A stretch of 46,428 bases of DNA. Origin: Candidatus Aminicenantales bacterium (GTDB lineage: Bacteria > Acidobacteriota > Aminicenantia > Aminicenantales > Saccharicenantaceae). The translations under genes were made by a program, and so were the position numbers. The stretch's first letter is position 1, and each line of letters opens with the position of its first letter. Below are positions 22,799 through 42,449 of the stretch, one piece after another. Under the pieces are notes generated by a model that saw only the letters and a list, made by a program, of their open reading frames with translations, did no database searches and was not told where the DNA came from. The stretch lies in contig JBGSUG010000018.1 of the NCBI GenBank assembly GCA_041736225.1, forward strand, positions 1 through 46,428, in the 5' to 3' direction.

Positions 22799-24033
22799 GC
22801 ACAGGTCCATTCTGCAGGTTCTGCGCCTCGCCCCTGAGCCATGTCCTCGTCGATCTGGGCATGTCGCCGCTCTGCGAAAGCTATCTGAGCCCTGCCCAAC
22901 TGAACCGGATGGAGCCGTTCTATCCTTTGCGCGTCTATGTCTGTGACCGCTGTTGGCTGGCCCAGCTCGAGGAATTCGTCGGTCCCGAAGAGATCTTCAC
23001 CGATTACGCCTATTTTTCCTCGTATTCGGATTCCTGGCTGAAGCACGCCGAGAACTACACGGAGGCGATCGTCCGGCGGCTCGGCCTCGGCCCGTCGAGC
23101 TTCGTCGTCGAGCTGGCCAGCAACGACGGCTACCTGCTCCAGTATTTCGTCGGAAAAGGCATCCCCGTCCTGGGCGTCGAGCCGGCGCGGAATATCGCCA
23201 AGGTGGCTATCGACAAAGGCATCCCGACCCGGATCGAATTTTTCGGCGAGAAGCTGGCGGCCGATCTAGCAGCGGAGGGGAAACGGGCCGACCTGATCAT
23301 CGGCAACAACGTGTTGGCGCAGGTGCCGGGGCTCAACGATTTCGTGCGGGGCATGAAGGTCCTGCTCAAGCCGACAGGCGTCATCACCCTGGAGTTCCCG
23401 CACCTCGTCCGTCTCATGGCCGGTAACCAGTTCGACACGATCTACCACGAGCACTTCTCGTATTTTTCGCTGACCGCGGCCGACAAGATCTTCGCGGCCC
23501 ACGGACTGGTCCTTTTCGACGTCGAGGAGCTGCCCACCCACGGCGGGTCCCTGCGGATATACCTCCGCCACAAGGAGGACGGATCGAAAACGGTCGGAGC
23601 GAGAGTCGGCGAGCTTCTGGCGCAAGAGGAGCGCGAAGGCATCAGCCGGCTGGAGACCTACGCGCGATTTTCCGGCCAGGTCCAGGAGACGAAACGCAAG
23701 CTCCTCGAATGCCTGATCGGCATCAAACGCCAAGGGCGGACGATCTGCGGCTACGGGGCGCCGGGCAAGGGCAACACCCTCCTGAATTACTGCGGCATCC
23801 GGACCGATTTCATCGATTTTACCGTCGACCGCAATCCTTACAAACAGGGCAAGTTCACTCCGGGAACCCACATTCCGATCCTGTCCCCGAATCGTATCGG
23901 GGAGACGCGTCCGGATTACATCTTCATCCTTCCCTGGAACTTCCAGGACGAGATCGTCGGGCAGATGTCCTTCGTCCGGGAATGGGGGGGCCGGTTCATC
24001 GTGCCCATTCCCGAAGTCAGGATCGTCGCATGA
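22795..24033 (+). CDS. SAM-dependent NDP-hexose C-methyltransferase (TylCIII-like; N-terminal Zn-ribbon plus class I MTase plus C-terminal C-methyltransferase domain)
   Basis: CRFCASP...CDRCWLAQ zinc-ribbon, FVVELASNDGYLLQ (SAM-binding) and ICGYGAPGKGNTLLNY. ATG 22795 forms an ATGA overlap with the upstream stop and is preferred over GTG 22783. Confidence 0.8.
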   Translation: MSTGPFCRFCASPLSHVLVDLGMSPLCESYLSPAQLNRMEPFYPLRVYVCDRCWLAQLEEFVGPEEIFTDYAYFSSYSDSWLKHAENYTEAIVRRLGLGPSSFVVELASNDGYLLQYFVGKGIPVLGVEPARNIAKVAIDKGIPTRIEFFGEKLAADLAAEGKRADLIIGNNVLAQVPGLNDFVRGMKVLLKPTGVITLEFPHLVRLMAGNQFDTIYHEHFSYFSLTAADKIFAAHGLVLFDVEELPTHGGSLRIYLRHKEDGSKTVGARVGELLAQEEREGISRLETYARFSGQVQETKRKLLECLIGIKRQGRTICGYGAPGKGNTLLNYCGIRTDFIDFTVDRNPYKQGKFTPGTHIPILSPNRIGETRPDYIFILPWNFQDEIVGQMSFVREWGGRFIVPIPEVRIVA

Positions 24034-24560
24034 TCTTCACCGAAACGAGGCTCCGGGGCGCTTTTCTCGTCGACATCGAGAGGCACGAGGACGAACGTGG
24101 ATTTTTCGCCCGGTCCTGGTGCCGCCGGGAGTTCGAGGCGCACGGCCTGAATCCCGGGATCGCCCAATGCAACGTCTCTTTCAACGTCCGGAAGGGGACT
24201 CTCCGGGGGATGCACTACCAGATCGCGCCCTTCGAGGAGGCCAAGCTCGTCCGCTGCACCAGGGGCTCTCTCTGCGACGTTATCGTCGATCTGCGGCCCG
24301 ATTCGCCCACGTTCCGGCAGCACGTGAGCGAGGTGCTGACCGCGGAGAACCGGCGCATGCTCTTTGTGCCCGAGGGTTTCGCCCACGGATTCCTGACGCT
24401 CGAGGACGGGACGGAGGTCTTCTACCAGATGTCCGCGTATCATGCGCCGGAGCGGGGGAGAGGTTTCCGCTGGAACGATCCGGCCTTCGGCATCCCTTGG
24501 CCGGCCGAGGTCGAGGTCATCTCGGAGCGGGACAGGCGTTATCCCGATTTCGGCGGCTGA
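24030..24560 (+). CDS. NDP-4-dehydro-6-deoxyhexose 3,5-epimerase (RmlC-like cupin)
   Basis: DERGFFARSW, GTLRGMHYQ, AKLVRCTRGSLCDVIVDLR and VPEGFAHGF. ATG 24030 forms an ATGA overlap with the upstream stop. Confidence 0.85.
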   Translation: MIFTETRLRGAFLVDIERHEDERGFFARSWCRREFEAHGLNPGIAQCNVSFNVRKGTLRGMHYQIAPFEEAKLVRCTRGSLCDVIVDLRPDSPTFRQHVSEVLTAENRRMLFVPEGFAHGFLTLEDGTEVFYQMSAYHAPERGRGFRWNDPAFGIPWPAEVEVISERDRRYPDFGG

Positions 24561-24573
24561 TGGGACCCGCACG

Positions 24574-25890
24574 ATGAACCTGAACGAACAGTCCGGATCC
24601 GCGGGCGGGGCGGGGATCGGCGTCGAGATCCATAGCCTTGTGGCGGAGCTTTTCCCGATCTGCCGGAGCATCACGGGAGACGGGTTCCGCAAGACCCTGG
24701 AGATCCTCGGACGGCACATCCCGATGACGGTCCACGAGGTCCCGTCGGGCACGCGTGTTTTCGATTGGACCGTGCCGAAGGAATGGAACATCCGGGATGC
24801 TTTCATCAAGGACCGCACAGGGGAGAGGATCGTCGATTTCCAGAGATCGAACCTCCATGTCGTCAGCTACAGCCGTCCCGTTCGCGCGTTCCTGCCCCTG
24901 GCGGAGCTGAAGAAGCATCTCCATACCCTGCCGGGCCAACCGGGCCTCGTCCCTTACAAGACCGCTTATTATTCGGAAGATTGGGGTTTCTGCCTGAGTC
25001 ACGGCCAACTTCTCGGCCTCGAGGAGGGTGATTACGAAGTCGTCATCGACTCCACGTTGGAGGACGGATCTCTGACCTACGGGGAATCCTTTCTCAAGGG
25101 CGCGACGGAGGACGAGATCCTCGTTTCGGTCCATGCCTGCCACCCTTCGCTCGCCAACGACAACCTCTCGGGCGTCGGTCTGGCGACGATGCTGGCCAGG
25201 CACCTGGGAACGCTTGATCGCAGGTTTTCCTACCGGTTCCTGTTCATCCCCGGCACGATCGGGGCGATCACCTGGCTCTGCTTGAACGAGGGAAAGGTCG
25301 GGAAGATCAAGGCGGGCCTTGTCGTCGCGGGCGCCGGGGACCGTGGGGACGTCACCTATCAGAGAAGCCGCCGCGGCGACGCCGAGATCGACAGGGCCGC
25401 AGCGCACGTCCTTGGGCGCGCCGACCGGCCGGGCCGACTCCTGGATTTCCGCCCCTACGGGTACGACGAACGCCAATATTGCTCTCCCGGATTCGACCTT
25501 CCGGTCGGACGGTTCTCCAGAACCCCGTTCGGCGAATATCTGGAATACCACACGTCCGGGGACGACATGACCTTTGTTTCGGCCGGCTCATTGGCCGACA
25601 GCTTTAGGAAGATCCTGGGCATCTTCGAGCTGCTCGAGGGGAACCGGACCTACCGGAATGTGAACCCGAAAGGCGAGCCTCAACTCGGTAAGCGCGGCCT
25701 CTACGCGTCGGAGGACGAAAAGAACCTGGCCACGCTCTGGGTCCTGAATCTCTCCGACGGGAGGAACAGTCTCCTCGGCATCGCCGAACGGTCGGCTCTG
25801 CCGTTCGAGGCCATACGCGCGGCTGCGGAGAGCCTGAGGCAAGCCGGCCTGCTCGTCGAATGCGCGGCGCCGGACGGCGTCAGGACATGA
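24574..25890 (+). CDS. DUF4910/DUF2172 aminopeptidase-like (M28-like fold) protein with a C-terminal winged-helix-like region
   Basis: LFPICRSITGDGFRKTLEIL, FDWTVPKEWNIRDAF, HPSLANDNLSGV and EYHTSGDD match my recollection of this family, which commonly rides in glycan loci. ATG 24574 is preferred over tracked 24442, which overlaps the epimerase. Confidence 0.7.
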   Translation: MNLNEQSGSAGGAGIGVEIHSLVAELFPICRSITGDGFRKTLEILGRHIPMTVHEVPSGTRVFDWTVPKEWNIRDAFIKDRTGERIVDFQRSNLHVVSYSRPVRAFLPLAELKKHLHTLPGQPGLVPYKTAYYSEDWGFCLSHGQLLGLEEGDYEVVIDSTLEDGSLTYGESFLKGATEDEILVSVHACHPSLANDNLSGVGLATMLARHLGTLDRRFSYRFLFIPGTIGAITWLCLNEGKVGKIKAGLVVAGAGDRGDVTYQRSRRGDAEIDRAAAHVLGRADRPGRLLDFRPYGYDERQYCSPGFDLPVGRFSRTPFGEYLEYHTSGDDMTFVSAGSLADSFRKILGIFELLEGNRTYRNVNPKGEPQLGKRGLYASEDEKNLATLWVLNLSDGRNSLLGIAERSALPFEAIRAAAESLRQAGLLVECAAPDGVRT

Positions 25891-25909
25891 ATCGAGAGGA
25901 GTGAACGGC

Positions 25910-26692
25910 ATGAAAGTCGTGCTCTTTTGCGGCGGACAGGGGATGCGTCTCCGCGAATATTCGGAGGTCATCCCGAAGCCGATGGTCCCGCTGGGAAACC
26001 GGCCGATCCTCTGGCACGTCATGAGATACTACGCGCATTTCGGCCACAAGGAGTTCATCCTTTGCCTGGGCTACCGGGGCGATCTCATAAAGAAATATTT
26101 CGTCAATTACGACGAATGCATCTCGAACGACTTCGTCCTGACGAAAGGGGGCCGGGACCTCAAGCTCCTCACCAGCGACATCGGCGAATGGAAGATCACC
26201 TTCGTCGATACGGGCTTGAACGCCAACGTCGGACAAAGGCTGTGCGCCGTCAGGAAACACCTGGGGAACGACGAGGTCTTCCTGGCGAACTACGCCGACG
26301 GCCTGACGGACCTCGATTTCACGGTGTACCTGGACCGATTCCTGGCTCGGGACGTTGTCGCCTCCTTCCTGGCCGTCAAGCCGACCCAGAGCTTCCACGT
26401 CGTGACCATCAAGAACCACGACCATGTGACCGGGATCAGCCCGCTCGGCGAATCCGGCACCTGGATCAACGCGGGCTATTTCGCCTTCCGGAAGGAGATC
26501 TTCAAATACATCAAGGAGGGGGAAGACCTCGTGAAGGAGCCTTTCCTGAGGCTCATCGATAAAAAGCGGATCATGGCCCACAAGCACGAGGGGTTCTGGA
26601 TGGCCATGGATACGTTCAAGGACAAGCAATACCTGGACGAGATGGTCTCCGCGGACAGCGTACCCTGGGAGGTCTGGAGGACGAAAAGATGA
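25910..26692 (+). CDS. rfbF: Glucose-1-phosphate cytidylyltransferase
   Basis: MKVVLFCGGQGMRLREYSEVIPKPMVPLGNRPILWHVMRYYAHFGHKEFILCLGYRG is near-canonical for RfbF/DdhA. ATG 25910 lies 9 nt after GAGAGGA. Confidence 0.85.
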   Translation: MKVVLFCGGQGMRLREYSEVIPKPMVPLGNRPILWHVMRYYAHFGHKEFILCLGYRGDLIKKYFVNYDECISNDFVLTKGGRDLKLLTSDIGEWKITFVDTGLNANVGQRLCAVRKHLGNDEVFLANYADGLTDLDFTVYLDRFLARDVVASFLAVKPTQSFHVVTIKNHDHVTGISPLGESGTWINAGYFAFRKEIFKYIKEGEDLVKEPFLRLIDKKRIMAHKHEGFWMAMDTFKDKQYLDEMVSADSVPWEVWRTKR

Positions 26693-27342
26693 ACAGCCTC
26701 GCCGTCACGTCTCGGGGGAGATCGCTCAAGGTCCTCTGTCTGGGCGCCCACAGCGACGATATCGAGATCGGCTGCGGCGGCACCGTCCGCGCGTTGATCG
26801 CCTCTCATCCCGGGATCGAGTTTGATTGGATCGTGCTGAGCGCATTCGGGAAGCGGAGGAAGGAAGCCGAGTCCGGGGCCGCCGCGTTCCTCTCCGGAGC
26901 GGCTCGCAAGAGCGTTTCGGTCAAGGCTTTCCGGGACGGATATTTCCCCTACATCGGGGGAGAGATCAAGGACTGGTTCGAGGAGTTGAAGAAGTCCGTG
27001 GAGCCAGACCTGATCCTCACGCATCACCGTCGCGACCTCCATCAGGACCACCGGCTGGTCTCCGAACTGACTTGGAACACCTTCCGGGACCACCTCATCC
27101 TGGAGTACGAGGTCCCGAAGTACGACGGCGACCTCGGGGCCCCGAATGTCTTTGTTCCCCTGGATGAAAACGCCTGTCGAGCGAAAGTCGAGACTATCCT
27201 GACGCATTTTCGCACCCAGGCCGGGAATTCCTGGTTCACGGCGGATACCTTCCAGGCCCTGATGCGGTTGCGCGGCATCGAGTCCAACGCTCCCTCGGGC
27301 TACGCCGAGGCGTTCTACGGCCGGAAGCTCACGATCGCCTAG
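26689..27342 (+). CDS. PIG-L/LmbE family N-acetylglucosaminyl deacetylase
   Basis: VLCLGAHSDDIEIGCGGT and THHRRDLHQDH (metal-binding His/Asp motifs). ATGA overlap with the rfbF stop. Confidence 0.8.
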   Translation: MNSLAVTSRGRSLKVLCLGAHSDDIEIGCGGTVRALIASHPGIEFDWIVLSAFGKRRKEAESGAAAFLSGAARKSVSVKAFRDGYFPYIGGEIKDWFEELKKSVEPDLILTHHRRDLHQDHRLVSELTWNTFRDHLILEYEVPKYDGDLGAPNVFVPLDENACRAKVETILTHFRTQAGNSWFTADTFQALMRLRGIESNAPSGYAEAFYGRKLTIA

Positions 27343-32612: not shown

Positions 32613-33745
32613 GTCGTCCGCGTCTCCCGGGCAGGCGCAGCTGTGACGAGCGCTTCGATCACGCGCCCGGCCGTCTGCCCGTCCCAAAGAGGAGGCACCT
32701 GTCCGATGCGCTCGGGGCCCGCGAGCAGGATCTCGAGGTCGTCGAGAAGGCTATCGAGTCTCGTCAGCTTGTTGCTGCCCAATGTCACGGTGACAGGCCG
32801 CTCGGTATTGGGCCTGAGAGTCAGGCAGGGTGTCCGGAAGAAGGTCGCCTCCTCCTGGAGGCCTCCCGAATCCGTCAGCACGACCCGGGCGTTCTCGCAG
32901 AGACGGAGTGAAGCGTGGTAACCCAGGGGTTCGAGCAGGACCAAGCGGTGGCCCGCCGGAGAAAGGAGCCCGAACTCCGAGAGCATCTTCCGGGTGCGGG
33001 GATGGACGGGAAAAACCACGGGAAGACGTTCCGATATCTTTTCCAGACCGGTCATGAGAGTCTTCAAATTGTGACGGTCGTCCACATTGGCCGGCCGGTG
33101 GAGCGTGACGTAGATGAACCGGGAAGGTTCGAGCCTGAGATCTTCGAGAACGCCGCCGGCGCGGGCTTTCGAGAGATTGTCGATGAGCGAATCGATCATG
33201 ATGTTGCCGACGAGCTTGATCTTTTCCCGGGCAACGCCTTCCCGGAGCAGGTTCCGGTCGGCGTCTTCCGAAGGTGTCAGGAGCAGGTCGGCCAGGGCAT
33301 CGGTCACCAGGCGGTTGATCTCCTCCGGCATAGTCCGGTCGAAGCTGCGCAGGCCCGCCTCGACATGGGCGACCCGGATGCCCATCTTGGAACAGACCAG
33401 GGTGCAGGCCATCGTCGAGTTGACATCTCCGACCACGACGACCCAATCGGGCTTTTCCCGGTCGCAGACGGCCTCGAAGCCGGTGAGGATGGCGGCCGTC
33501 TGGGTGGCGTGGGACCCGGACCCGACGCCGAGATTGATGTCCGGATGGGGGATGCCGAGCTCCCTGAAAAAGACTTCGGACATGTTCTCGTCGTAGTGCT
33601 GGCCGGTGTGAACGAGCAGGGCGTCGATGCGCGCCGTTCCCCGGTCTCCGAACGCGTTCTCCCGGACGATCCGCTTCATGAGCGGCGCGATCTTCATGAA
33701 GTTCGGGCGCGCCCCCGCGACGATGATCAGCTTCAGACGGCTCAT
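32609..33745 (-). CDS. wecB: UDP-N-acetylglucosamine 2-epimerase (non-hydrolysing)
   Basis: MSRLKLIIVAGARPNFMKIAPL, LVHTGQHYD, VVVVGDVNST, VAHVEAGLRS and VLTDSGGLQEE. GGAGGA lies 7 nt upstream of ATG 33745. Confidence 0.9.
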   Translation of the reverse strand: MSRLKLIIVAGARPNFMKIAPLMKRIVRENAFGDRGTARIDALLVHTGQHYDENMSEVFFRELGIPHPDINLGVGSGSHATQTAAILTGFEAVCDREKPDWVVVVGDVNSTMACTLVCSKMGIRVAHVEAGLRSFDRTMPEEINRLVTDALADLLLTPSEDADRNLLREGVAREKIKLVGNIMIDSLIDNLSKARAGGVLEDLRLEPSRFIYVTLHRPANVDDRHNLKTLMTGLEKISERLPVVFPVHPRTRKMLSEFGLLSPAGHRLVLLEPLGYHASLRLCENARVVLTDSGGLQEEATFFRTPCLTLRPNTERPVTVTLGSNKLTRLDSLLDDLEILLAGPERIGQVPPLWDGQTAGRVIEALVTAAPARETRTT

Positions 33746-33776
33746 GGGCGGATCCTCCGATGTCGGCCCTTCAGGG

Positions 33777-35828
33777 TCAATTGTTGGGCGTTCCCGCCTG
33801 TCGGCGGGGCCGGACGCGTTCGATCTGGACGATATTCTCGATGTGATCGCAGATGTCCTCGAGGGCCCCGCGGGCCCCTGTGTCCGGCGAACGGTCCTTG
33901 TCCCGGCGGACGATGCGGATCTTCGACCAGACCTCTTCCTTGGATCGGATCATGCCCAACCGCCCCTCCTCCTCGAGCATGATGTCCACGGCCCCGGTCC
34001 TGCCCCGGAAGATGCTGTAAACGGGCACGCCCAGGGCCGCGGCCTCGCGGTTCATCGTCCCGCCGCCGCTCACCACGAGGTCCGAGATCCAGAGCAGGTC
34101 CAAGCCGTCGACGGCCCGGCCCGGAACGACCGTCCGGCCGTTCTCGAACCATTCCGGGAATTTCGCCCTCATGTCGAGCTCCTGATGGGCGTTGCGGGGC
34201 AGGAGGACGGCTTGGACACCCGGCGTCCGGCAAACCCGGGCCATGAGCTCGTGGAACAGGACATCGCTCTCGGGATTGTAGTAATGGGCCTCGTCGGCGG
34301 GCGGCCGCACGGTGACGATGATCCTGTCCGATCGCAGTCCCAATTCCTCTGCGAGGAGGCCCGACGGCACGAAATCGGGGACATAGACGTCTTCCTTGAT
34401 CCCCCTGTAGCAGCGGGCCCGGCCGGGCTTCGACGGCAGGCTGTCCGGCGTCAGGGCTTCGGGCATGATCGTCCATCGCGGGTTGGATGGAAAAGGCACC
34501 CGGGCGAATTCATAGTCGAGGATCATCACGGTCGGGACGCCGAGAAGGTTGCTGAGGATGTTCTGAGAGCGGGACCCGTGGGAGACCGACAGCCCCGGTC
34601 TATGCCTGAGATAGAAAGGCAGCAACTGCAGGGCCCGGATGAAGAGCCCGCTGACCTTCAAGAGCAGGTTCTTGCCGTAATGGCGCCCGATCCTCCGGAC
34701 GCTCAGCCCCTTCTTCTCGGCGAGATCGCAGACCTGGAAGGCGTCCCGGGCGGACAGGACCACTTCGTGGCCGCGCCGCTCGAGCTCGCGGATGATGGGG
34801 ACGAAGAAGGGGACGTGGGGCGTATTGTCGAGATCGATCCATATCTTCACGGCTGGCGCGGCGGGCGGACCGGCCCGCAGGGGAGCGCGTTCGGTTGGCG
34901 ATGGCGCGGATCCGGGCGCCGCCGCCGTCCTCCAGAAACGGGCCACTTCCCGGGGCAGTGCCTGCCAGTACCGGCCCGCGTATCGGGTCCGGATGTAATC
35001 GAGGAGCTCGGCGTACCGCCCGACGGGATACTCTTCGCGTCCGCCGGCGGCCCCGTCGAAGATCATGTAGTCGGGATGGGTGTTGAGCGCGACCATGCCG
35101 CCCTTCGCCACGATCCAGTCGAGCTTCTGCTTCCAGATCCGGATGTCCTTCTCCCTGAGGATGATGAACAGCCCGTGGTCCTGAGGCAGGGTGTACGGCA
35201 GCTCGACGTAGTTCCTGGTGCCGGCGTCGTTGCCGCTCAGGAAGGGGAAGATGGAACCGACACCGTCCGACTGGGGCTCGAACGGATCCGTGTCGAACGT
35301 CGAGCAGGAGTACTCGATATCGAGCTCGGCGATCCAATTCAGCTTGCTGAGCATGGATGGCGAGCTGAAGCCCACCGCGTCCCACCGGCGGAGATAGCCA
35401 TCGATCCGGGGCACCTTGGCCCGGAATTCCGACGGACGCCGGAAGAGCTTGCCGTCGTGTTTGAGGCCGTGCACGCCGACTTCGAACCCGGCTTCGGACA
35501 GTGCCCGGACGATACGCGACGGCGTCGGATAATCCTCGGGCACAAAATTGAATGCGGACCGGAAGCCCATCCTCCGGTCGACGTCCATCAGTTGCAGGCA
35601 TCGTTTCAAGCCCTTCAAACTGTCGACGTCGTGGTAGAGGACCAGGGCGAAGTCCTTGCCATCGGGCCAGCCGTTCCAGCCTCGGGGAGATTTCGCGGAA
35701 TTCGGGTCGATGGGCCAACGATCCTTGACGCGCCTGCGCTTTTGGGAGGCGATCGCCCGCCGTATCGATATCTGGAGCCCTCGCGGGATGACCGGCTTGA
35801 CCTGGTAGAATATATCGATGGCCTTCAT
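33777..35828 (-). CDS. Two-domain fusion: N-terminal polysaccharide-deacetylase-like (CE4-related) domain plus C-terminal DUF354 (GT-B / 2-epimerase-like fold) domain
   Basis: N-terminal half: FALVLYHDVDS, GFEVGVHGLKHDG and VALNTHPDY. C-terminal half, from about aa 325: VKIWIDLDNTPHVPFFVPIIRELERRGHEVVLSARD, SHGSRSQNILSNLLGVPTVMILDYE and LVVSGGGTMNREAAALGVPVYSIF, matching my recollection of DUF354. Confidence 0.75.
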   Translation of the reverse strand: MKAIDIFYQVKPVIPRGLQISIRRAIASQKRRRVKDRWPIDPNSAKSPRGWNGWPDGKDFALVLYHDVDSLKGLKRCLQLMDVDRRMGFRSAFNFVPEDYPTPSRIVRALSEAGFEVGVHGLKHDGKLFRRPSEFRAKVPRIDGYLRRWDAVGFSSPSMLSKLNWIAELDIEYSCSTFDTDPFEPQSDGVGSIFPFLSGNDAGTRNYVELPYTLPQDHGLFIILREKDIRIWKQKLDWIVAKGGMVALNTHPDYMIFDGAAGGREEYPVGRYAELLDYIRTRYAGRYWQALPREVARFWRTAAAPGSAPSPTERAPLRAGPPAAPAVKIWIDLDNTPHVPFFVPIIRELERRGHEVVLSARDAFQVCDLAEKKGLSVRRIGRHYGKNLLLKVSGLFIRALQLLPFYLRHRPGLSVSHGSRSQNILSNLLGVPTVMILDYEFARVPFPSNPRWTIMPEALTPDSLPSKPGRARCYRGIKEDVYVPDFVPSGLLAEELGLRSDRIIVTVRPPADEAHYYNPESDVLFHELMARVCRTPGVQAVLLPRNAHQELDMRAKFPEWFENGRTVVPGRAVDGLDLLWISDLVVSGGGTMNREAAALGVPVYSIFRGRTGAVDIMLEEEGRLGMIRSKEEVWSKIRIVRRDKDRSPDTGARGALEDICDHIENIVQIERVRPRRQAGTPNN

Positions 35829-35989
35829 AAGGCTGTATCTCGACCTTTCTCAAAAAAATTTAGTCGCCGAAACAGCAAATTCGACATAACTCGCGTGAAT
35901 AAATTAGCCCAACGGGTCTGGAATTACAAGTGACCATGTGTTTTGGTGTATCGATATTGAACAGTGTTTCCTTTATGAGTTGCCGCGGA

Positions 35990-36007: not shown

Positions 36008-37372
36008 ATGGAAGGATCGAGACACGGTCTTCGAATGTTCTGGGCTGTCCTCAGTTTGTCCTTGCTCGCCGCGGCTTGCGGCGTCGGCGGGGGAGGGGCC
36101 GGCGATTCGGCCTACCCGCTGAAAGTCGGCCCCGGCGGTCGCTACCTGGCCGATCAGCAGGGGAACCCCTTCTTGATCATCGGGGACGCCCCCCAGGCGC
36201 TTATGGTCAACGCCTCGGTCGGCGAAGCGGAGTTCCTGCTGGCCAACCGGGCCTCCCACGGCTTCAATACCGTCTGGATCATGCTCATCTGCAACGCTTA
36301 TTCGGGAGGCCGGGCCGATGCCAGCACCTTTGACGGCCTCACGCCGTTCACGGCCGCCAACGACCTCTCCACTCCCCGCGAGGCCTATTTCGCCCGATGC
36401 GACGCGGTCATCCGGGCCGCCGCGGATCAAGGCCTCAACGTCATTCTCGATCCCGTCGATACGGGGGGGTTCATGCCGGTCCTGCGGCAGAACGGGCTCG
36501 AAAAGTGCCGGACATACGGCCGCTATCTCGGAGATCGCTACAAGGACTTCGACAACATCATCTGGATGTCGGGGAGCGACTTCCAGAGCTGGCGAACGGC
36601 CTCTGATAACGCTCTGGTCAAGGCCGTCGCCGACGGCATTCGGGAAACGGACTCCCGGCACATCCACACGCTCCAACTCGACTACTTCGTCAGCAGCTCA
36701 CTCGATAACAGCGCCTGGTCGGGCCTGGTCACGCTCAATGCCGCCTATACCTACTATCCGGCCTACGCGGAGGTCCTCGAGGGATACAACCGTGCCCCGG
36801 CCGTCCCGGTTTTCCTGATCGAATCCGATTACGAGGGAGAGAACGGCGCCGATGCGGAACGGCTCCGTCGGCAGGAATACTGGACGCTGCTATCGGGGGC
36901 TTGCGGGCATGTCTTCGGAAACGCCTTCGTCTGGCCGCTTATGACGGGTTGGGAGGACAATCTCGATACGCCGGGGGTCCTCCAGTTCGGCCATTGCCGG
37001 GCCCTGTTCGCATCGCGGCCCTGGCATTCCCTCGTTCCGGACCAAACCCATATGCTGGTGACCGCCGGGTACGGTTCGTTCTGGTCGGGCGGGGTGCCGA
37101 GTTCCGGCATCAGCCAGAACGACTATGTCGCGGCAGCCTCCACGCCCGACGGGAAACTCGCGATCGTCTACATCCCCACGTCGCGGACTATCGCGGTCGA
37201 CCTGGCCCGTTTGTCCGGCAGCGTGTCAGCCCGCTGGTACGATCCGACGACGGGGGCCGCCCAATCGATCTCCGGTTCTCCCTTCCCGAACGTCGGCCCC
37301 CGGAACTTCACGACCCCCGGCCTACACGCCGACGGAGCGGGGGACTGGGTGCTGATCCTCGAATCGCTCTGA
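36008..37372 (+). CDS. DUF4038 / GH140-like glycoside hydrolase with C-terminal collagenase-type beta-sandwich; lipoprotein-like signal
   Basis: MFWAVLSLSLLAAAC is lipobox-like. GNPFLIIGDAPQAL, SHGFNTVWIML, AADQGLNVILDP and DNIIWMSGSDF fit the (beta/alpha)8 DUF4038 pattern. C-terminal ARWYDPTTGA...GDWVLILE. Start uncertain: ATG 36008, or ATG 36035, or GTG 35930. Confidence 0.7.
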   Translation: MEGSRHGLRMFWAVLSLSLLAAACGVGGGGAGDSAYPLKVGPGGRYLADQQGNPFLIIGDAPQALMVNASVGEAEFLLANRASHGFNTVWIMLICNAYSGGRADASTFDGLTPFTAANDLSTPREAYFARCDAVIRAAADQGLNVILDPVDTGGFMPVLRQNGLEKCRTYGRYLGDRYKDFDNIIWMSGSDFQSWRTASDNALVKAVADGIRETDSRHIHTLQLDYFVSSSLDNSAWSGLVTLNAAYTYYPAYAEVLEGYNRAPAVPVFLIESDYEGENGADAERLRRQEYWTLLSGACGHVFGNAFVWPLMTGWEDNLDTPGVLQFGHCRALFASRPWHSLVPDQTHMLVTAGYGSFWSGGVPSSGISQNDYVAAASTPDGKLAIVYIPTSRTIAVDLARLSGSVSARWYDPTTGAAQSISGSPFPNVGPRNFTTPGLHADGAGDWVLILESL

Positions 37373-37392: not shown

Positions 37393-37421
37393 TTGACATC
37401 CCGGGGACTGTGAAATAAGAT
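37393..37421 (+). promoter_or_regulatory. Candidate sigma70-type promoter for the ACP cassette
   Basis: Consensus TTGACA (37393-37398), 17-nt spacer, TAAGAT (37416-37421). ATG 37437 lies 15 nt after the -10 hexamer. Confidence 0.45.
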
Positions 37422-37436
37422 TTTTCCTGAAGAGCC

Positions 37437-38477
37437 ATGGCCAAGTGCATGATCCCGGGCGCCGCCATCAAAGGCATCGTCTCGGCAGTCCCATCGCGTC
37501 GCTTCGATAATTTCGAAGACACGTCCGGCTTCACCGCGGAAGAGGTCCGCAAGGTCGTCGGCATGGCCGGCGTCAAGAGCCGTAGACTGGCCGGCGAATC
37601 CGTCTGCAGCAGCGATCTCTGCCAGGCCGCGGCCGAATCGCTCCTGGAGAGGGTCGGATGGGAGCGGGATTCCGTCGACGCCCTGATCATGGTCACCCAG
37701 TCGCCCGACTATCTTCTGCCCTCGACGGCCTGCCTTTTGCAGGCCAAGCTGCGCCTGCCGACATCCTGCGCCGCGTTCGACGTCGGCCTGGGCTGTTCGG
37801 GTTATCCCTACGGGCTTTATCTCGGGGCGCTCATGATCTCCCACGGGGGTATCCGCAGAGCCCTGGTGCTGCACGGAGAGACCCCGGCCCGTTTCGCCGA
37901 CGAGAGCGACCGCTCCGTTTCGCTGTTGTTCGGCGATGCCGGGTCGGCAACAGCGCTGGAGGCGGACCCGCTCGGGAACCCCTCACCTTGGGCCTTCGTT
38001 CTTCACACGGACGGCAGCGGGTATGAAGACCTCATCATCCCCGGCGGGGGCTTCCGGGAGCGGTTCCCCGAAGACCGGCGGAGGCACTACGTCTCGATGA
38101 ACGGGCCCAACATCTTCAGCTTTTCGATCAAGCGGGTCCCGGCGGTGATCCAGGACACCTTGGCCCTCGCCGGAACGACTAAAGAGGATGTGGACTATTA
38201 CATCCTCCATCAATCCAATCAGTTCATCATGAAGCATCTCGCCAAGAAGCTGGGTATCCCCGAGGGGAAGATGCCGCTGACCTTGGGGGATTTCGGCAAT
38301 ACAGGCGGGCCCTCGGTGCCGCTCACCGTGACCCGGGCCGGCCTGGTCAGGCCGCCCGACCGTCCACTGACCCTGATGCTTGTCGGCTACGGAGTCGGGT
38401 TGTCGTGGGGATCCGCCTTGGTCGGCCTGGCCCCGGATGCCGCGCTCGGCCACGTTGAGCTCGAGAACCGGGATTGA
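37437..38477 (+). CDS. 3-oxoacyl-ACP synthase III (FabH-like KAS III)
   Basis: The Cys-His-Asn triad is recognisable: AFDVGLGCSGYPYGL, YILHQSNQFIMKH and GDFGNTGGPSVPL. Confidence 0.85.
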   Translation: MAKCMIPGAAIKGIVSAVPSRRFDNFEDTSGFTAEEVRKVVGMAGVKSRRLAGESVCSSDLCQAAAESLLERVGWERDSVDALIMVTQSPDYLLPSTACLLQAKLRLPTSCAAFDVGLGCSGYPYGLYLGALMISHGGIRRALVLHGETPARFADESDRSVSLLFGDAGSATALEADPLGNPSPWAFVLHTDGSGYEDLIIPGGGFRERFPEDRRRHYVSMNGPNIFSFSIKRVPAVIQDTLALAGTTKEDVDYYILHQSNQFIMKHLAKKLGIPEGKMPLTLGDFGNTGGPSVPLTVTRAGLVRPPDRPLTLMLVGYGVGLSWGSALVGLAPDAALGHVELENRD

Positions 38478-38525
38478 ATGGACCGGCCCGGCCGGATCTA
38501 TTAGCGATGAGGAGCGCCTGAGAAA

Positions 38526-38774
38526 TTGACCAAGGCTACCGACGAGATCCTGGCTTGGGTCGCCGAGATCTTCGAGACCCCTTTGGAGAAGATCCGTCTC
38601 GAAACGAAAAGGGAGGACATCGAGGCCTGGGACTCTCTCGGGATCCTGACCTTGATCGCCCGAATGGACGAAGACTTCCACATACTCCTGACGGATGAGG
38701 AGATACAGCGGCTGAGATCCGTCGGGGACATCGTCGACTTTCTCAACCAACGCGACGAGAACCCCGGCCCTTAA
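38526..38774 (+). CDS. Acyl carrier protein (dedicated, non-housekeeping type)
   Basis: 82 aa and acidic, with the phosphopantetheine attachment motif AWDSLGILTLI. TTG start as tracked (uncertain). Confidence 0.75.
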   Translation: MTKATDEILAWVAEIFETPLEKIRLETKREDIEAWDSLGILTLIARMDEDFHILLTDEEIQRLRSVGDIVDFLNQRDENPGP

Positions 38775-38778
38775 GACC

Positions 38779-39252
38779 ATGCGCTTCCTGTTCGTCGACC
38801 GCATCCTCAGGCTCGAACCGGGAAGATCCATCGAAGCGGAACGCGTCTTTCCCGGCGATCTGGATTTTTTCCGCGACCATTTCCCCGGCTTCCCGGTCGT
38901 ACCCGGAGTCCTGCTGACGGAGATGATGGGCCAGGCGGCAGCCATGTGCCTGAACGCCGAGATTCCGGAGAAGGCGCGGGGCCGGGCCGTCCTGGCCCAG
39001 ATCCGTTCGGCGTCCTTCCGGGACTGGGTCAAGCCGGACGAAAAGATCTCGATCAAGGCGGAGATCCGGACGAGCCGCCCGGAATTGGCGACGGCCGTCT
39101 GTTCGGCCGAGGTCCGGGGGAGCAAAGTCTCGACCGCCGACCTCCTTTTTACCTTTTTACCGAAGGAACGGACCTCTCCGGACGACCGCGACGAGGTCCT
39201 GGAATCCTTTCTGGCTTCCTCAGGCCGGGTGAAAGACGGGCCCCATGGATAA
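38779..39252 (+). CDS. FabZ/FabA-like hotdog-fold 3-hydroxyacyl-ACP dehydratase
   Basis: FFRDHFPGFPVVPGVLLTEMMGQAA carries the catalytic His and Glu context of FabZ. Confidence 0.8.
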   Translation: MRFLFVDRILRLEPGRSIEAERVFPGDLDFFRDHFPGFPVVPGVLLTEMMGQAAAMCLNAEIPEKARGRAVLAQIRSASFRDWVKPDEKISIKAEIRTSRPELATAVCSAEVRGSKVSTADLLFTFLPKERTSPDDRDEVLESFLASSGRVKDGPHG

Positions 39253-40009
39253 GACGTTCGGCCTCGAAGGCAAGAACTTTCTGATCGCCGGCGGGACGCG
39301 GGGCATCGGGCGGGCCATTTCGCTGCAGTTCGCCCGGTCCGGCGCGCGAGTCGTCGCCAACTATGTTCGGGACGAGCAGGCGGCCCAGGCCCTCCTGGCG
39401 GAAGCCGCGCGGGAAGCCTTGGGCCTGACCGTTTGCCGGGCCGATCTGACGAGCGCCAAAGGCCTGGCCAAGCTGGATAAAGAGGTCGAAACCGCGCTGA
39501 CCGATCTCTCCGGCCTGGTCTTCTGCGCGGCCACGGGCGTTCACCGTTCCTTCGAAGGCATGACCGACCGTCACTTCGACTGGACTTTTTCGCTGAATGT
39601 CAGGGCTTTCTTCGACCTGGCATTGCTTTTGCTCCCGAGATTCCGCGAGTCTGCCTCCATCGTTGTCCTGTCTTCCCAGGGCGCACGCCAGGTCGTGCCT
39701 TCGTATTCGCTGGTCGGCGCCTCCAAGGCGGCTTTGGAATCGCTGGCCCGGCACATGGCCGTGGAGCTGGCGCCTCGCGGTATCCGGGTCAACATCCTGT
39801 CGCCCGGCGCTGTCCGAACGGGGGCCTGGTCCGCGATGCCCGACGGGGAGGCCAGACTGGCGGGAGCGGCAAGAAGGTCGCCGCTCGAAAGACTGACTTC
39901 TCCGGAGGAGGCGGCTTTAGCCGCGCAATTCCTCTGCTCGGATGCCGCCCGGGGTATCGTCGGGCATACGCTCGTCGTCGACGGCGGCATGAGCCTCATT
40001 GGGGAGTAG
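39245..40009 (+). CDS. Short-chain dehydrogenase/reductase (FabG-like 3-oxoacyl-ACP reductase)
   Basis: FLIAGGTRGIGRAI, VLSSQG, YSLVGASKAALE (Y-x-K) and NILSPGAVRT. 8-nt overlap with the upstream gene. Confidence 0.85.
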   Translation: MDKTFGLEGKNFLIAGGTRGIGRAISLQFARSGARVVANYVRDEQAAQALLAEAAREALGLTVCRADLTSAKGLAKLDKEVETALTDLSGLVFCAATGVHRSFEGMTDRHFDWTFSLNVRAFFDLALLLLPRFRESASIVVLSSQGARQVVPSYSLVGASKAALESLARHMAVELAPRGIRVNILSPGAVRTGAWSAMPDGEARLAGAARRSPLERLTSPEEAALAAQFLCSDAARGIVGHTLVVDGGMSLIGE

Positions 40010-40010
40010 G

Positions 40011-41138
40011 ATGCTCATCCCGAAACCTCGCTTTCCCGTCAGGCAGATGCTCCTCATGGGCTGGCTGCCGGGTTTCCTGAAAAAGGCCCTTTACCGGCTC
40101 AAGGGCTACCGGATCGGCAAAAGAGTCTCCATCGGCTTCGGATCAGTCGTGATCGGCGAAGAGGTCTCCATAGGGGATCACGCTTCGATCGGCTTCCTGT
40201 CTTTCGTTCGCGGCCGGCGGATCCGGATCGGAGATCATGTCCAGATCGGGGCGACCACGTTCATCGACACTCCCCACTTCGAGATCGGCGACGGCAGCAA
40301 GATCAACGAACAGGTCTTCGTCGGAGGCCTCCAATTCCCGGATTCCCGGCTTATCATCGGCCGGAACTGCCAGATCATGCAGATGTCCTTCATCAATCCG
40401 GCCCGGTCCATCACGATCGGGGACGACAGCGGCATCGGCGGGGACTGCCTCCTCTTCGGTCACACCTCTTGGCTAAGCCAGCTCGAGGGGTACAACGTGG
40501 ACTTTCAGCCCATCGAGATCGGCAACAGCGTGTCGTTGTCCTGGCGCGTCTTCGTCCTGCCGGGGGCCAAGATCGGGGATGGGGCCGTGATCGGGGCCAA
40601 CTCCCTCGTCAATCACGTCATTCCGCCGAAGTGCCTGGCCGTCGGCTTCCCGGCCAGGGTCGTGAGCAAATTCCCCGATTTCCCGAGGGATCTTTCGATC
40701 GGAGAAAAGGCGGGCCTTTTCGATGACATGATCAGGGAGATGATCGCCTACTTCCGGAATTCGGGACTGGCCTGCGAGGGGACGGGGCCCGGATACGTCG
40801 TTTTCAAGGCGGGCAGGCACGGCTTGAAGCGCTCCCGGAAATGGCGCCTTCTCGCGGCCGCGGCGCCCGTCGCGGGAGCATCCTGCGACCTGCCGTCAGG
40901 GGATGTCGACGTCCTGGTGAGCTTCGGCCGGATCGCACCTGACGAAAGGCGGAGACTCGACGAGAGCGGAACGGTCTGGTTCGACGTCGATGTCAAGGAA
41001 CAGGCTTTCGCGACCAACGACCTGGCGGAGGACGTGGCCCTCTTCCTCCGGCGCTACGGCATCCGGTTCTTTCGTGACAAGGGAGGACCGCCGGCCCGCC
41101 GAACGGATGGCGCTCCCAAGCCCGTCCATAAGAGATGA
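40011..41138 (+). CDS. Left-handed beta-helix (hexapeptide-repeat) acyltransferase with an uncharacterised C-terminal extension of about 170 aa
   Basis: Successive hexapeptide repeats: IGKRVSIGFGSVVIGEEVSIGDHASIG, IRIGDHVQIG, ITIGDDSGIGGDCLL and AKIGDGAVIGANSLV. ATG 40011 follows the stop at 40007-40009 and a GGGGAG SD, and is preferred over TTG 39999. Confidence 0.8.
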   Translation: MLIPKPRFPVRQMLLMGWLPGFLKKALYRLKGYRIGKRVSIGFGSVVIGEEVSIGDHASIGFLSFVRGRRIRIGDHVQIGATTFIDTPHFEIGDGSKINEQVFVGGLQFPDSRLIIGRNCQIMQMSFINPARSITIGDDSGIGGDCLLFGHTSWLSQLEGYNVDFQPIEIGNSVSLSWRVFVLPGAKIGDGAVIGANSLVNHVIPPKCLAVGFPARVVSKFPDFPRDLSIGEKAGLFDDMIREMIAYFRNSGLACEGTGPGYVVFKAGRHGLKRSRKWRLLAAAAPVAGASCDLPSGDVDVLVSFGRIAPDERRRLDESGTVWFDVDVKEQAFATNDLAEDVALFLRRYGIRFFRDKGGPPARRTDGAPKPVHKR

Positions 41139-41141
41139 CGC

Positions 41142-42449
41142 ATGAAGTTCGATAACTCGCTCAAAATACAAAAGCGGTTCCGGGCCATCGTTCCCGGCGG
41201 GTGCCACACCTACGCGAAAGGGGACGACCAGTATCCCCAGCCCATGCCCGTCTATATCGCTAGGGGCAAGGGATCCCATGTCTGGGACCTCGACGGCAAC
41301 GAATACATCGAATACGGCCAGGGCCTGCGGACGGTGACGCTGGGTCACGCATTCGAGCCCGTCGTGGAGGCCTCGTACCGTCAGATGCTGTTGGGCAGCA
41401 ACTACGTCCGGCCGGCCCGGATCGAGCTCGAGTGCGCCGAGGAATTCCTCTCGATCGTCGACGGGGCCGACATGGTCAAGTTCGGCAAGGACGGATCGGA
41501 CGCGACGAGCGGCGCGGTCAGGCTGGCCCGGGCCTACACGGGCCGGGACATGGTGGCCATCTGCGGCGATCAGCCGTTCTTCTCGGTCGACGACTGGTTT
41601 ATCGGCAGCACACCCATGTCGGCGGGCATCCCGGCCTGCACGAAGGAACTCACGGTGGGATTTCGCTACAACGATATCGCGAGCGTGAGGGAACTCTTCG
41701 GCGCGTACCCGGGGCGGATCGCCTGCGTCATCCTCGAAGCCGAAAAGTACGAGCCTCCCGCCGCGGGTTTCCTGCACGAGCTCAAGGAGCTCGCCCACGA
41801 TAACGGGGCGGTCTTCATCCTCGACGAGATGATCACCGGATTCCGGTGGCACCTCGGCGGAGCCCAAAAGAAATACGACATCGTTCCCGACCTGTCGGCG
41901 TTCGGCAAAGCCCTCGGGAACGGGTTCGCCGTCTCGGCCCTGGCCGGGAAGAGGGACATCATGGAGCTGGGCGGCCTGGACCATGCGAAAGAGAGGGTCT
42001 TCCTCCTTTCGGCGACGCACGGCGCCGAGAACCACGCCCTCGCCGCGGCCATGGCCACGATGAAGTTCTACAGGGAGAATCCCGTCGTCGAAACGCTGTA
42101 TGCACAGGGCCGGCGTCTGGCCGAAGGCGTCAATCGGGCCTCGGCGGCACTGGGCCTTGCGGATCACGTCTCCGTCATCGGCCCGGATTGCTGCTCCGTT
42201 TACACGACCCGGGACGAGGCCGGAAAGCCATCGCAGCCTTTCCGGACGCTGTTCCTGCAGGAAACCATGAAACGCGGCCTCCTGATGCCCTCGAGCATCG
42301 TCTCCTACGCCCATTCCGACGCGGACATCGATCAGACGATCGACAGGATCTCCGAAGCCCTCGTCGTCTATAGGAAAGCCCTCGACGAAGGGATCGGGAA
42401 ATACCTCGACGGGGCGCCTGTCAAGCCCGTTTTCCGTAAATTCAATTAG
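41142..42449 (+). CDS. Class-III PLP aminotransferase, glutamate-1-semialdehyde 2,1-aminomutase-like
   Basis: GGCHTYAKG, IARGKGSHVWDLDGNEYIEY, FILDEMITGFR and DLSAFGKALGNGFAVSALAG (PLP lysine). Confidence 0.85.
   Translation: MKFDNSLKIQKRFRAIVPGGCHTYAKGDDQYPQPMPVYIARGKGSHVWDLDGNEYIEYGQGLRTVTLGHAFEPVVEASYRQMLLGSNYVRPARIELECAEEFLSIVDGADMVKFGKDGSDATSGAVRLARAYTGRDMVAICGDQPFFSVDDWFIGSTPMSAGIPACTKELTVGFRYNDIASVRELFGAYPGRIACVILEAEKYEPPAAGFLHELKELAHDNGAVFILDEMITGFRWHLGGAQKKYDIVPDLSAFGKALGNGFAVSALAGKRDIMELGGLDHAKERVFLLSATHGAENHALAAAMATMKFYRENPVVETLYAQGRRLAEGVNRASAALGLADHVSVIGPDCCSVYTTRDEAGKPSQPFRTLFLQETMKRGLLMPSSIVSYAHSDADIDQTIDRISEALVVYRKALDEGIGKYLDGAPVKPVFRKFN

Follow-up and report, generated by a model that had tools for sequence, protein, structure and literature searches.

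A five-gene candidate acyl-decoration module in a polysaccharide locus of an Aminicenantales bacterium

Acylation of glycans through a private beta-ketoacyl-acyl carrier protein synthase III (KAS III), a private acyl carrier protein (ACP) and a left-handed beta-helix (LbH) transferase is already known. In Pseudomonas syringae pv. tabaci, a viosamine island comprises vioA, vioS (KAS III), vioR, acp, vioB (LbH), vioM and vioT, and mass spectra of mutants link vioS, vioR, acp, vioB and vioA to N-(3-hydroxybutanoyl)viosamine (PMC3927599). For the O-polysaccharide of Flavobacterium psychrophilum, the genes wfpC-wfpG are predicted to give N-(3,5-dihydroxyhexanoyl)Qui2NAc4N (PMC6519341). Here we describe a related set of genes in a 46,428-nt stretch of DNA from Candidatus Aminicenantales bacterium (contig JBGSUG010000018.1 of assembly GCA_041736225.1), hereafter the window.

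Like the viosamine island and the flagellin glycosylation island of Pseudomonas aeruginosa PAK (PMC3927599), the window has a private KAS III, an ACP and a reductase beside an LbH gene in a glycan locus. By gene content it belongs with the viosamine and wfp cassettes, but the type of reductase and the LbH family differ. The viosamine island places a C4 acyl group on a sugar, apart from housekeeping fatty-acid synthesis (FAS), and a comparable product is predicted for the window from its genes. However, that island uses a ketoreductase (KR) with a YxxxK motif, has neither a dehydratase (DH) nor an enoyl reductase (ER) and yields a 3-hydroxybutanoyl group, whereas the window has a DH and a FabL-like candidate ER and no KR. 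VioB is a 213-aa N-acetyltransferase of the NeuD/PglD type, whereas the LbH protein of the window, at 375 aa, is of another family and has an extra domain; the sugar aminotransferase of the island is of the DegT type. The wfp set likewise combines KAS III, an O-polysaccharide-specific ACP, a reductase and an LbH enzyme for a predicted N-acylation of an amino sugar with a short chain made as in type II FAS. It differs in having two KAS III genes and a KR, a C6 dihydroxy chain, a transferase homologous to PglD and no DH or ER, and its pathway was predicted from a known glycan structure, whereas the window is known from genes alone. New here are the pairing of a DH with a predicted ER, which would make the cassette fully reducing, an LbH family distinct from those of the precedents and with a C-terminal domain of its own, tailoring genes that are gained and lost as modules from phylum to phylum, and the exosortase loci in which the cassette is often found elsewhere.

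We put the probability at roughly 0.6 that positions 37437-41138 form a self-contained acyl-decoration module of the polysaccharide locus, in which a C4 chain is built on the private ACP, brought to butyryl with the help of FabG acting in trans and transferred to the glycan by the LbH enzyme. KAS III would join a primer supplied as acyl-coenzyme A (acyl-CoA), in the simplest case acetyl-CoA, to malonyl carried by the private ACP and presumably loaded there by housekeeping FabD. The 3-oxoacyl-ACP would be reduced by a ketoreductase from outside the cassette, presumably housekeeping FabG in trans, the product dehydrated by the FabZ-like hotdog enzyme, and the enoyl group reduced by a short-chain dehydrogenase/reductase (SDR) of the FabL/FabI type. 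As no elongating KAS I or II is present, synthesis would end with a single round, and an acetyl primer would give butyryl-ACP. Using its invariant His151, the LbH enzyme would then move the acyl group from ACP onto a sugar precursor or the lipid-linked repeat unit, at either a hydroxyl or an amino group, its C-terminal domain being a candidate docking module for the carrier protein or the acceptor. Because DH and ER both appear to be present, the predicted end product is a saturated acyl group rather than the 3-hydroxy or 2-enoyl chain named in an earlier, sequence-only note on this DNA (the original prediction). The central idea of that note, a non-housekeeping mini-FAS with a private ACP and LbH transfer to a glycan, is supported by synteny, by the paralogues found elsewhere in the genome and by the two precedents (PMC3927599, PMC6519341).

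All six plus-strand open reading frames (ORFs) that had been predicted are present, co-directional and tightly spaced in the ORF listing over 37437-42449 (Table 1). The junctions from KAS III through ACP, hotdog enzyme, SDR and LbH protein to the aminotransferase measure 48, 4, -8, 1 and 3 nt in order, and gaps of 64 nt and 224 nt precede KAS III and follow the aminotransferase. The KAS III matches the Pfam models ACP_syn_III and ACP_syn_III_C above their cut-offs (57.1 and 74.5 bits), finds its best PDB match in 4efi (293 bits) and retains the Cys/His/Asn triad intact, as expected from the original prediction; it scores below the cut-offs of the housekeeping FabH models (TIGR00747, 198 against 292 bits; NF006829, 225 against 249 bits). 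The ACP passes the PP-binding cut-off (24.3 against 20.8 bits) and scores below that of the acpP equivalog (34 against 70 bits). Its DSL site was correctly predicted, the serine being present on alignment: WDSLG is invariant in 33 aligned ACP orthologues, and DS[LMIV] occurs in 61 of 61. The third protein matches Pfam FabA at 58 bits and the FabZ equivalog at 80.7 bits, under the cut-off of 113; its HFP...PGVL..E motif is kept in the alignment to FabZ structures, where His34 and Glu48 align, so that both the fold family and the catalytic residues agree with a hotdog dehydratase.

Table 1 Coordinates of the cassette and of neighbouring features in the window
Feature	Position (nt)	Strand	Details
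Sugar-nucleotide module: SDR epimerase/dehydratase, C-methyltransferase, DUF4910, NTP-transferase, PIG-L	21749-27342	+	Pfam/NCBIfam
Apiosidase-like glycoside hydrolase, predicted lipoprotein	36008-37372		directly upstream of cassette
Promoter-like TTGACA-N17-TAAGAT	37393-37421	+	15 nt before FabH ATG; consensus scan 10/12
KAS III (FabH-like) condensing enzyme	37437-38477	+	346 aa; Cys120/His258/Asn288
Dedicated ACP	38526-38774	+	82 aa; TTG start; Ser37 in WDSLG
FabZ-like hotdog 3-hydroxyacyl-ACP dehydratase	38779-39252	+	157 aa; His34/Glu48
FabL/FabI-type SDR, probable enoyl-ACP reductase	39245-40009	+	254 aa; Tyr154-x6-Lys161
LbH acyltransferase	40011-41138	+	375 aa; beta-helix at about residues 40-225; invariant His151
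Family-specific C-terminal alpha/beta domain of LbH protein	40686-41090	+	residues 226-360; about 135 aa
Class-III (glutamate-1-semialdehyde-aminomutase-like) aminotransferase, PRK06209 family	41142-42449	+	435 aa; Lys256
Glycan-locus proteins: Wzx, Wzy, GT2, GT4, DegT, FemAB-like, two ATP-grasp ligases, WecB			

The fourth gene encodes the SDR, which had been taken for a FabG-type reductase. Its top NCBIfam match is FabL (PRK08063, 202 bits, with the FabL equivalog cut-off at 328), and its top PDB matches are Bacillus subtilis FabL (3oic, 131 bits) and Thermus thermophilus FabI (1ulu). FabG models also match it (NF009466, 136 bits; TIGR01830, 116 bits against a cut-off of 298). The Tyr-x3-Lys motif of FabG was found nowhere in the protein, the classical Tyr position being occupied by Val; the protein has instead Tyr154-x6-Lys161, the spacing of FabI and FabL, which places it in the FabL/FabI type. 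Judged by motif and best matches, the SDR is most likely an enoyl-ACP reductase, FabL-like but not a FabL equivalog, and it is therefore the ketoreductase, not the enoyl reductase, that appears to be the missing step. The claim that the cassette lacks both FabF and an enoyl reductase thus stands for the elongating KAS and most likely fails for the reductase. In related loci, Yx6K occurs in 48 of 60 SDRs adjacent to the LbH gene and YxxxK in 30 of 34 other neighbouring SDRs, which lie mostly between FabH and ACP and score FabG-like. These results bear on an alternative in which the SDR is a FabG-type ketoreductase, the LbH enzyme transfers a chain that ends as 3-hydroxybutyryl- or crotonyl-ACP, and the six genes work as a single cassette. 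The FabG matches, the occurrence of KR-only cassettes (FabH-KR-ACP-LbH) in relatives and the 3-hydroxybutanoyl group of the viosamine island would all fit such a scheme. We nevertheless regard it as unlikely: the Y-x6-K spacing, the missing YxxxK and the FabL best match in both NCBIfam and PDB argue against it, the KR slot of relatives is filled by a separate YxxxK SDR of the type that KR-only cassettes use, and the aminotransferase is not conserved with the cassette (see below).

The LbH gene is listed as an ORF of 379 aa (39999-41138); alignment with 12 homologues shows the ATG at 40011 (MLIPKPRFP...) to be the real start. The protein matches Hexapep at 48.5 bits against a cut-off of 27, and His151, in FGHTSW, is invariant in 41 sequences of its family. 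The family is about 358 aa long and very conserved, with 1474 database relatives, the best 120 of which are 57-94% identical. Among the resources searched we found no curated model of this family and no described member, and the Protein Atlas gives its cluster only the automatic name 'lipid A biosynthesis protein family'. The family profile lies nearest to the O-acetyltransferases LacA, Mac and SACOL2570 (E 3e-20), with QdtC-type N-acetyltransferases weaker (E 8.5e-11) and LpxA and LpxD not among the 60 best matches. Our structural model of the whole protein is of moderate quality (predicted local distance difference test score, pLDDT, of 70, weak at residues 160-225), and a Foldseek search with it returned nothing at E <= 0.001. 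In a structure search, the modelled beta-helix body reached Z 13-15 against LbH enzymes; LpxD, YdcK and polysialic-acid O-acetyltransferases tied at Z 14-15.

The extra domain of the LbH protein is real and confined to this LbH family, although at about 135 aa it is shorter than the roughly 170 aa first assigned to it. Folded alone, residues 226-360 give an alpha/beta model with a pLDDT of 82 and a predicted template modelling score of 0.79. No clear match to the domain was found in the PDB, the best Foldseek hit (HcgD/MJ0927, E 0.02) being within noise; AF1548, VC1899 and a Can2-type nuclease-like fold were considered as fold candidates and rejected, with a best VIA-align Z of 6.2, also within noise. 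A profile of the domain run against 1.84 billion cluster representatives recovered only 136 proteins, in all of which it forms the C-terminus of a protein of about 320-367 aa or the match is a fragment. A complex prediction with two LbH copies and the private ACP, using alignments, gave no answer (score 0.00) and is not evidence either way.

As in LpxA and LpxD, the beta-helix of the window's enzyme precedes a C-terminal non-helix domain, and an acyl group would pass from acyl-ACP to a sugar nucleotide, the use of this donor being presumed for the window. In LpxD the C-terminal domain serves in ACP recognition. However, the domain in the window is alpha/beta rather than helical and family-confined, and the LpxA and LpxD models on the protein stay far under their cut-offs (TIGR01852, 35.8 against 231 bits; TIGR01853, 45.2 against 242 bits). 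LpxA and LpxD also have a core function, whereas the cassette is accessory and would draw its donor from a dedicated one-round FAS. It is quite unlikely, in our view, that KAS III takes a medium or long acyl-CoA and the LbH enzyme acts in the manner of LpxA or LpxD on a sugar to make a lipidated glycan or an alternative membrane glycolipid. The tie of the beta-helix with LpxD in the structure search (Z 15.0; 4e75, 2iu8, 4ihf), among other LbH enzymes, and the automatic cluster name would agree with a lipid anchor of this kind, as would the genome itself: lpxA, lpxD and lpxC have no match in it (G000) at 93.6% completeness, the LpxA and LpxD models reaching 33.6 and 26.9 bits in a search of the genome. 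Against the lipid anchor stand the model scores, the family profile nearer to LacA and Mac, the lack of an elongating KAS in the cassette, and the absence of the cassette from a same-genus and one same-family genome in which lpxC was not found either.

Since no lpxA, lpxD or lpxC was found in the genome, the cassette is not part of a Raetz pathway, and since the same-genus genome lacks the cassette, it is no lineage-wide substitute for lipid A. Among kin of this genome (G167, G382, G207, G177), a search for lpxC likewise found nothing in the same-genus and two same-family genomes but did find it in a same-order genome; this Aminicenantes-like family may be without the classical lipid A pathway. 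A housekeeping role in FAS was likewise rejected, with the cassette missing from the same-genus genome and the true housekeeping genes lying on other contigs: fabH on C177 (362 bits, above cut-off), acpP on C86 (112 bits) with fabG directly upstream, and fabD as fragments on C55 and C352. A second FabZ-like gene lies on C225. The cassette thus belongs neither to housekeeping lipid A nor to fatty-acid synthesis, a possibility that the original prediction had raised against itself.

A motif scan of 185,579 species genomes found the LbH family at 92 loci in at least 92 genomes, all metagenome-assembled. The closest loci, at 72-93% identity, are labelled Candidatus Aminicenantes; others come from Desulfobacterota, Nitrospira, Verrucomicrobiota, Bryobacterales and other Acidobacteriota, Gemmatimonadota and Planctomycetota. 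In the sampled genomes of the phylum the family is rare (2 of 401) and does not occur in the same-genus genome. We counted neighbourhoods in 80 fetched loci and tallied architectures in 63 loci with enough upstream sequence. On the same strand and in the same order, the LbH gene is accompanied by an SDR in 72 of the 80 loci, an ACP in 62, FabH in 57 and FabZ in 55. The arrangement FabH-(KR)-ACP-FabZ-ER-LbH as such is repeated in about 60 of the 80 loci, drawn from Aminicenantes, Desulfobacterota, Nitrospira, Verrucomicrobiota and Acidobacteriota, with KR, DH and ER varying from locus to locus. The window's architecture, FabH-ACP-DH-ER-LbH, is found in about 20 of the 63 loci, and FabH-KR-ACP-DH-ER-LbH in about 17; FabH-KR-ACP-LbH (4), FabH-ACP-ER-LbH (2) and FabH-ACP-LbH (2) are rarer, and about 12 loci have the LbH gene without FAS genes. 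A dedicated YxxxK SDR lies between FabH and ACP in about 40% of the related cassettes. In a tree of the LbH family, the window falls within a well-supported KR-less clade of Aminicenantes, and the presence of the KR switches at least four times across the tree. This gain and loss of tailoring genes across loci marks the cassette as a modular one-round type II FAS.

Surface polysaccharides that bear short acyl groups change in charge, hydrophobicity, antigenicity and resistance to enzymes. To our knowledge, the genes behind such groups, acetyl apart, have been described in no more than a few cultured pathogens. The cassette occurs, among others, in Nitrospira, Verrucomicrobiota, Desulfobacterota and Acidobacteriota from soils, sediments and wastewater. 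Should gene content prove to predict the acyl group, metagenomes could reveal the decoration, and, if our reading is true, the enzymes could be used to acylate glycans with defined C4 groups. A broader proposal, which we offer tentatively, is that the LbH family and its partners move horizontally, as a widespread tool-kit, among uncultured phyla of soil, sediment and wastewater, in which the presence of KR, DH and ER programmes the oxidation state of a C4 group (acetoacetyl, 3-hydroxybutyryl, crotonyl or butyryl) on exopolysaccharides. The C-terminal domain would then be a new module for docking the carrier protein, through which a LacA/Mac-like enzyme could use acyl-ACP, and the window might specify an as yet undescribed type of polymer, made more hydrophobic by butyryl groups.

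Gene sets for an acyl-CoA ligase, ACP and a pyridoxal-phosphate (PLP) decarboxylase are associated with exosortase A in the exopolysaccharide loci of PEP-CTERM systems (Haft-type TIGRFAM neighbourhoods). Nitrospira, Verrucomicrobiota, Desulfobacterota and Bryobacterales carry the same LbH family as the window beside AMP-ligases, a second ACP, an AsnB-like protein, a PLP decarboxylase and an exosortase; by contrast, no exosortase was found in the window's genome, and the 46-kb contig encodes none of these partners. A role of the cassette towards a small molecule or in protein modification, for instance of exosortase/PEP-CTERM cargo, rather than in the polysaccharide would accord with its position in other phyla beside exosortase, AMP-ligases, a second ACP and AsnB-like and NAD-synthase-like enzymes. 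We consider this highly improbable here, given that no exosortase was found in this genome, that the window is a Wzx/Wzy glycan locus and that the conserved neighbours in Aminicenantes relatives are the sugar genes WecB and DUF354. A literature search on exosortase together with ACP and hexapeptide proteins found nothing relevant. The window contig ends in the gene for an Fe-S protein (45461 onwards), and exosortase-type partners could lie beyond its end. In loci beyond the closest relatives of the window, among them L006, L007 and L010 of Aminicenantes, a conserved group of genes comes after the LbH cassette and encodes an aldo/keto reductase, an AMP-ligase, a second ACP, an AsnB-like amidotransferase, an NAD-synthase-like protein and a DUF362 protein (for example L010:14059-20458, L024:11113-17975 and L042:11239-16628, and about 30 other loci), often with an exosortase EpsH or a PLP decarboxylase.

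The sixth gene, which the original prediction had included in the cassette, appears to belong to another module. As that note had stated, it encodes a class-III aminotransferase resembling glutamate-1-semialdehyde (GSA) aminomutase: the PRK06209 model NF004856 scores 725.6 bits against a cut-off of 486, and the PLP lysine Lys256 aligns with that of GSA aminomutase. It is outside the HemL equivalog (TIGR00713, 212 against 527 bits), and the genome has a second class-III aminotransferase gene, 29% identical, on contig C233. PRK06209 exceeds its cut-off in 5 of 201 sampled genomes of the phylum. Genomes G057, G041 and G015 carry the aminotransferase with homologues of the NTP-transferase, C-methyltransferase, DUF4910 and PIG-L proteins that are also encoded in the window, and genes of this sugar module flank it in L093, L094 and L096. 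No member of the LbH family was found in G057, G015 or G127, and G041 gave a weak, generic LbH match only; there the aminotransferase is part of a glycan operon of the ABC-transporter type that also encodes an RmlC-like epimerase and several glycosyltransferases and in which no KAS III, ACP or acyltransferase was found. In the 80 fetched loci the aminotransferase follows the LbH gene only in Aminicenantes relatives, and in a contig from a sediment metagenome, about 94% identical to the window, an extra 1605 nt separates the two genes (at window positions 41071-41141). Genes of the sugar module also lie upstream of the FabH cassette in seven loci of Verrucomicrobiota and Acidobacteriota (L030, L033, L035, L047, L052, L072 and L078), always with the NTP-transferase and PIG-L and in some with the C-methyltransferase, AT3 or DUF4910.

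As the aminotransferase occurs with the sugar module where the LbH family is missing, it is not part of the conserved acyl cassette. It appears to belong to a sugar pathway, so far uncharacterised, that frequently though not always accompanies the acyl module, and the supposed six-gene unit is better described as a five-gene module with a putatively co-transcribed guest. The product of the aminotransferase is probably an amino sugar, and this may, or may not, accept the acyl group. For the PRK06209 'GSA aminomutase' family, the probable role is thereby corrected to a sugar pathway, rather than haem or acyl-chain synthesis, and a class-III aminotransferase in a nucleotide-sugar pathway would be unusual. 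Neighbourhoods of DUF4910 with genes for a sugar nucleotidyltransferase, a methylase, an N-acyltransferase and ACP have been noted before (PMC4000134). Our search of the literature on GSA aminomutase with O-antigen and 3-oxoacyl/ACP found nothing relevant. The sugar module recurs in several phyla as an SDR epimerase, sometimes an RmlC-like epimerase, DUF4910, C-methyltransferase, NTP-transferase, PIG-L and PRK06209; its NTP-transferase is divergent and resembles glucose-1-phosphate cytidylyltransferase.

The original prediction had also envisaged a beta-amino-acyl product, for which the aminotransferase would convert 3-oxoacyl-ACP to 3-aminoacyl-ACP and the LbH enzyme would transfer the amino-acyl group. 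GSA-aminomutase-like domains of lipopeptide synthetases do act on carrier-bound 3-oxoacyl groups, as in the transamination by the aminotransferase domain of mycosubtilin synthetase. Only 3 nt separate the LbH and aminotransferase genes, and a dedicated KR is missing in all 10 LbH loci that have this aminotransferase within 10 kb. However, these 10 loci represent only three to four independent lineages, the aminotransferase occurs without the LbH family in G057, G015 and G127 and without FabH, ACP or acyltransferase in the G041 operon, and 1.6 kb is inserted between the two genes in the close relative. The DH and ER would, moreover, be left without a substrate. With the aminotransferase outside the conserved cassette, we judge a beta-amino-acyl decoration very unlikely.

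Several points weigh against our own reading of 37437-41138 as an acyl-decoration module. (i) The weakest is that the cassette has no ketoreductase, so that DH and ER would be idle unless FabG serves the private ACP. (ii) The SDR scores below the FabL cut-off (202 against 328 bits), and its assignment as ER draws on the motif and the best hits. (iii) The LbH core is nearest to CoA-dependent O-acetyltransferases, not to the ACP-dependent LpxA and LpxD, and its presumed use of acyl-ACP follows from gene linkage only. (iv) The loci with the LbH gene but no FAS genes indicate that the enzyme can take acyl groups from other sources. (v) KAS III enzymes that use long or branched primers exist, so that the chain may be longer than C4 or branched. 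(vi) Every biochemical step is a prediction from sequence.

The unit had also been credited with a promoter of its own. Taken by itself, the promoter-like site upstream of FabH is within chance, with 2 sites found against 1.1 +/- 1.4 in shuffles. In an alignment of the window with nine related loci upstream of FabH, however, a TTGAC(A/T)-N17-TAAGAT/TAATAT pair and the T-run that follows it are kept in 8 of 10 sequences, while the flanks differ and the distance to the ATG varies from 15 to about 57 nt. The pair is also present in L004, where the upstream glycoside hydrolase gene is missing. This conservation supports a candidate promoter for the cassette, so the claim draws support from the conserved element, not from the single-site match. 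A search of the plus strand for terminator-like sites found none between 37373 and 37436 or beyond 42449, so the ends of the unit rest on gaps and promoter-like sites, and read-through from the hydrolase gene is possible. One contig from the metatranscriptome run X20 crosses the promoter-like site and the gap between the hydrolase gene and FabH, and X20 contigs 95-97% identical to the window cover parts of FabH, FabZ and LbH; coming from an RNA library with possible DNA carry-over, or from a relative, they were not used as proof of expression or read-through. L007 and L010 lack the TTGACA/TAAGAT element; in the roughly 70 nt upstream of FabH both loci have in its place another conserved leader, CTCTACGAAAC.ACCGCCGCCGCGACTAAATAA.CGAT, which directly precedes the ATG.

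The window makes up all of contig C273 in a genome of 2.93 Mb (423 contigs, 93.6% complete), and Pfam and NCBIfam scans of its proteins identify a large glycan locus of the Wzx/Wzy type. The stretch is almost completely present in two runs of one study labelled as hot-springs and biofilm metagenomes, one of which may have yielded this DNA, and sediment metagenomes contain partial matches. The N-terminus of the apiosidase-like hydrolase upstream of the cassette has a lipoprotein-type signal (...LSLLAAAC...), and its gene is kept in seven distinct Aminicenantes relatives and missing in L004, L007 and L010. In one Aminicenantes relative (L003/L009, contig_575) the ER gene is reduced to a 99-aa fragment beside an opposite-strand ORF (about 7305-7954 in L003), and an M4 peptidase and unknown genes replace the aminotransferase; the cassette there may be decaying or rearranged. 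Further upstream in the window, a 768-aa plus-strand ORF (33627-35933) without a Pfam match is probably a high-GC shadow of a 683-aa minus-strand ORF (33777-35828), which is the one conserved in relatives, where it is called as a DUF354 gene.

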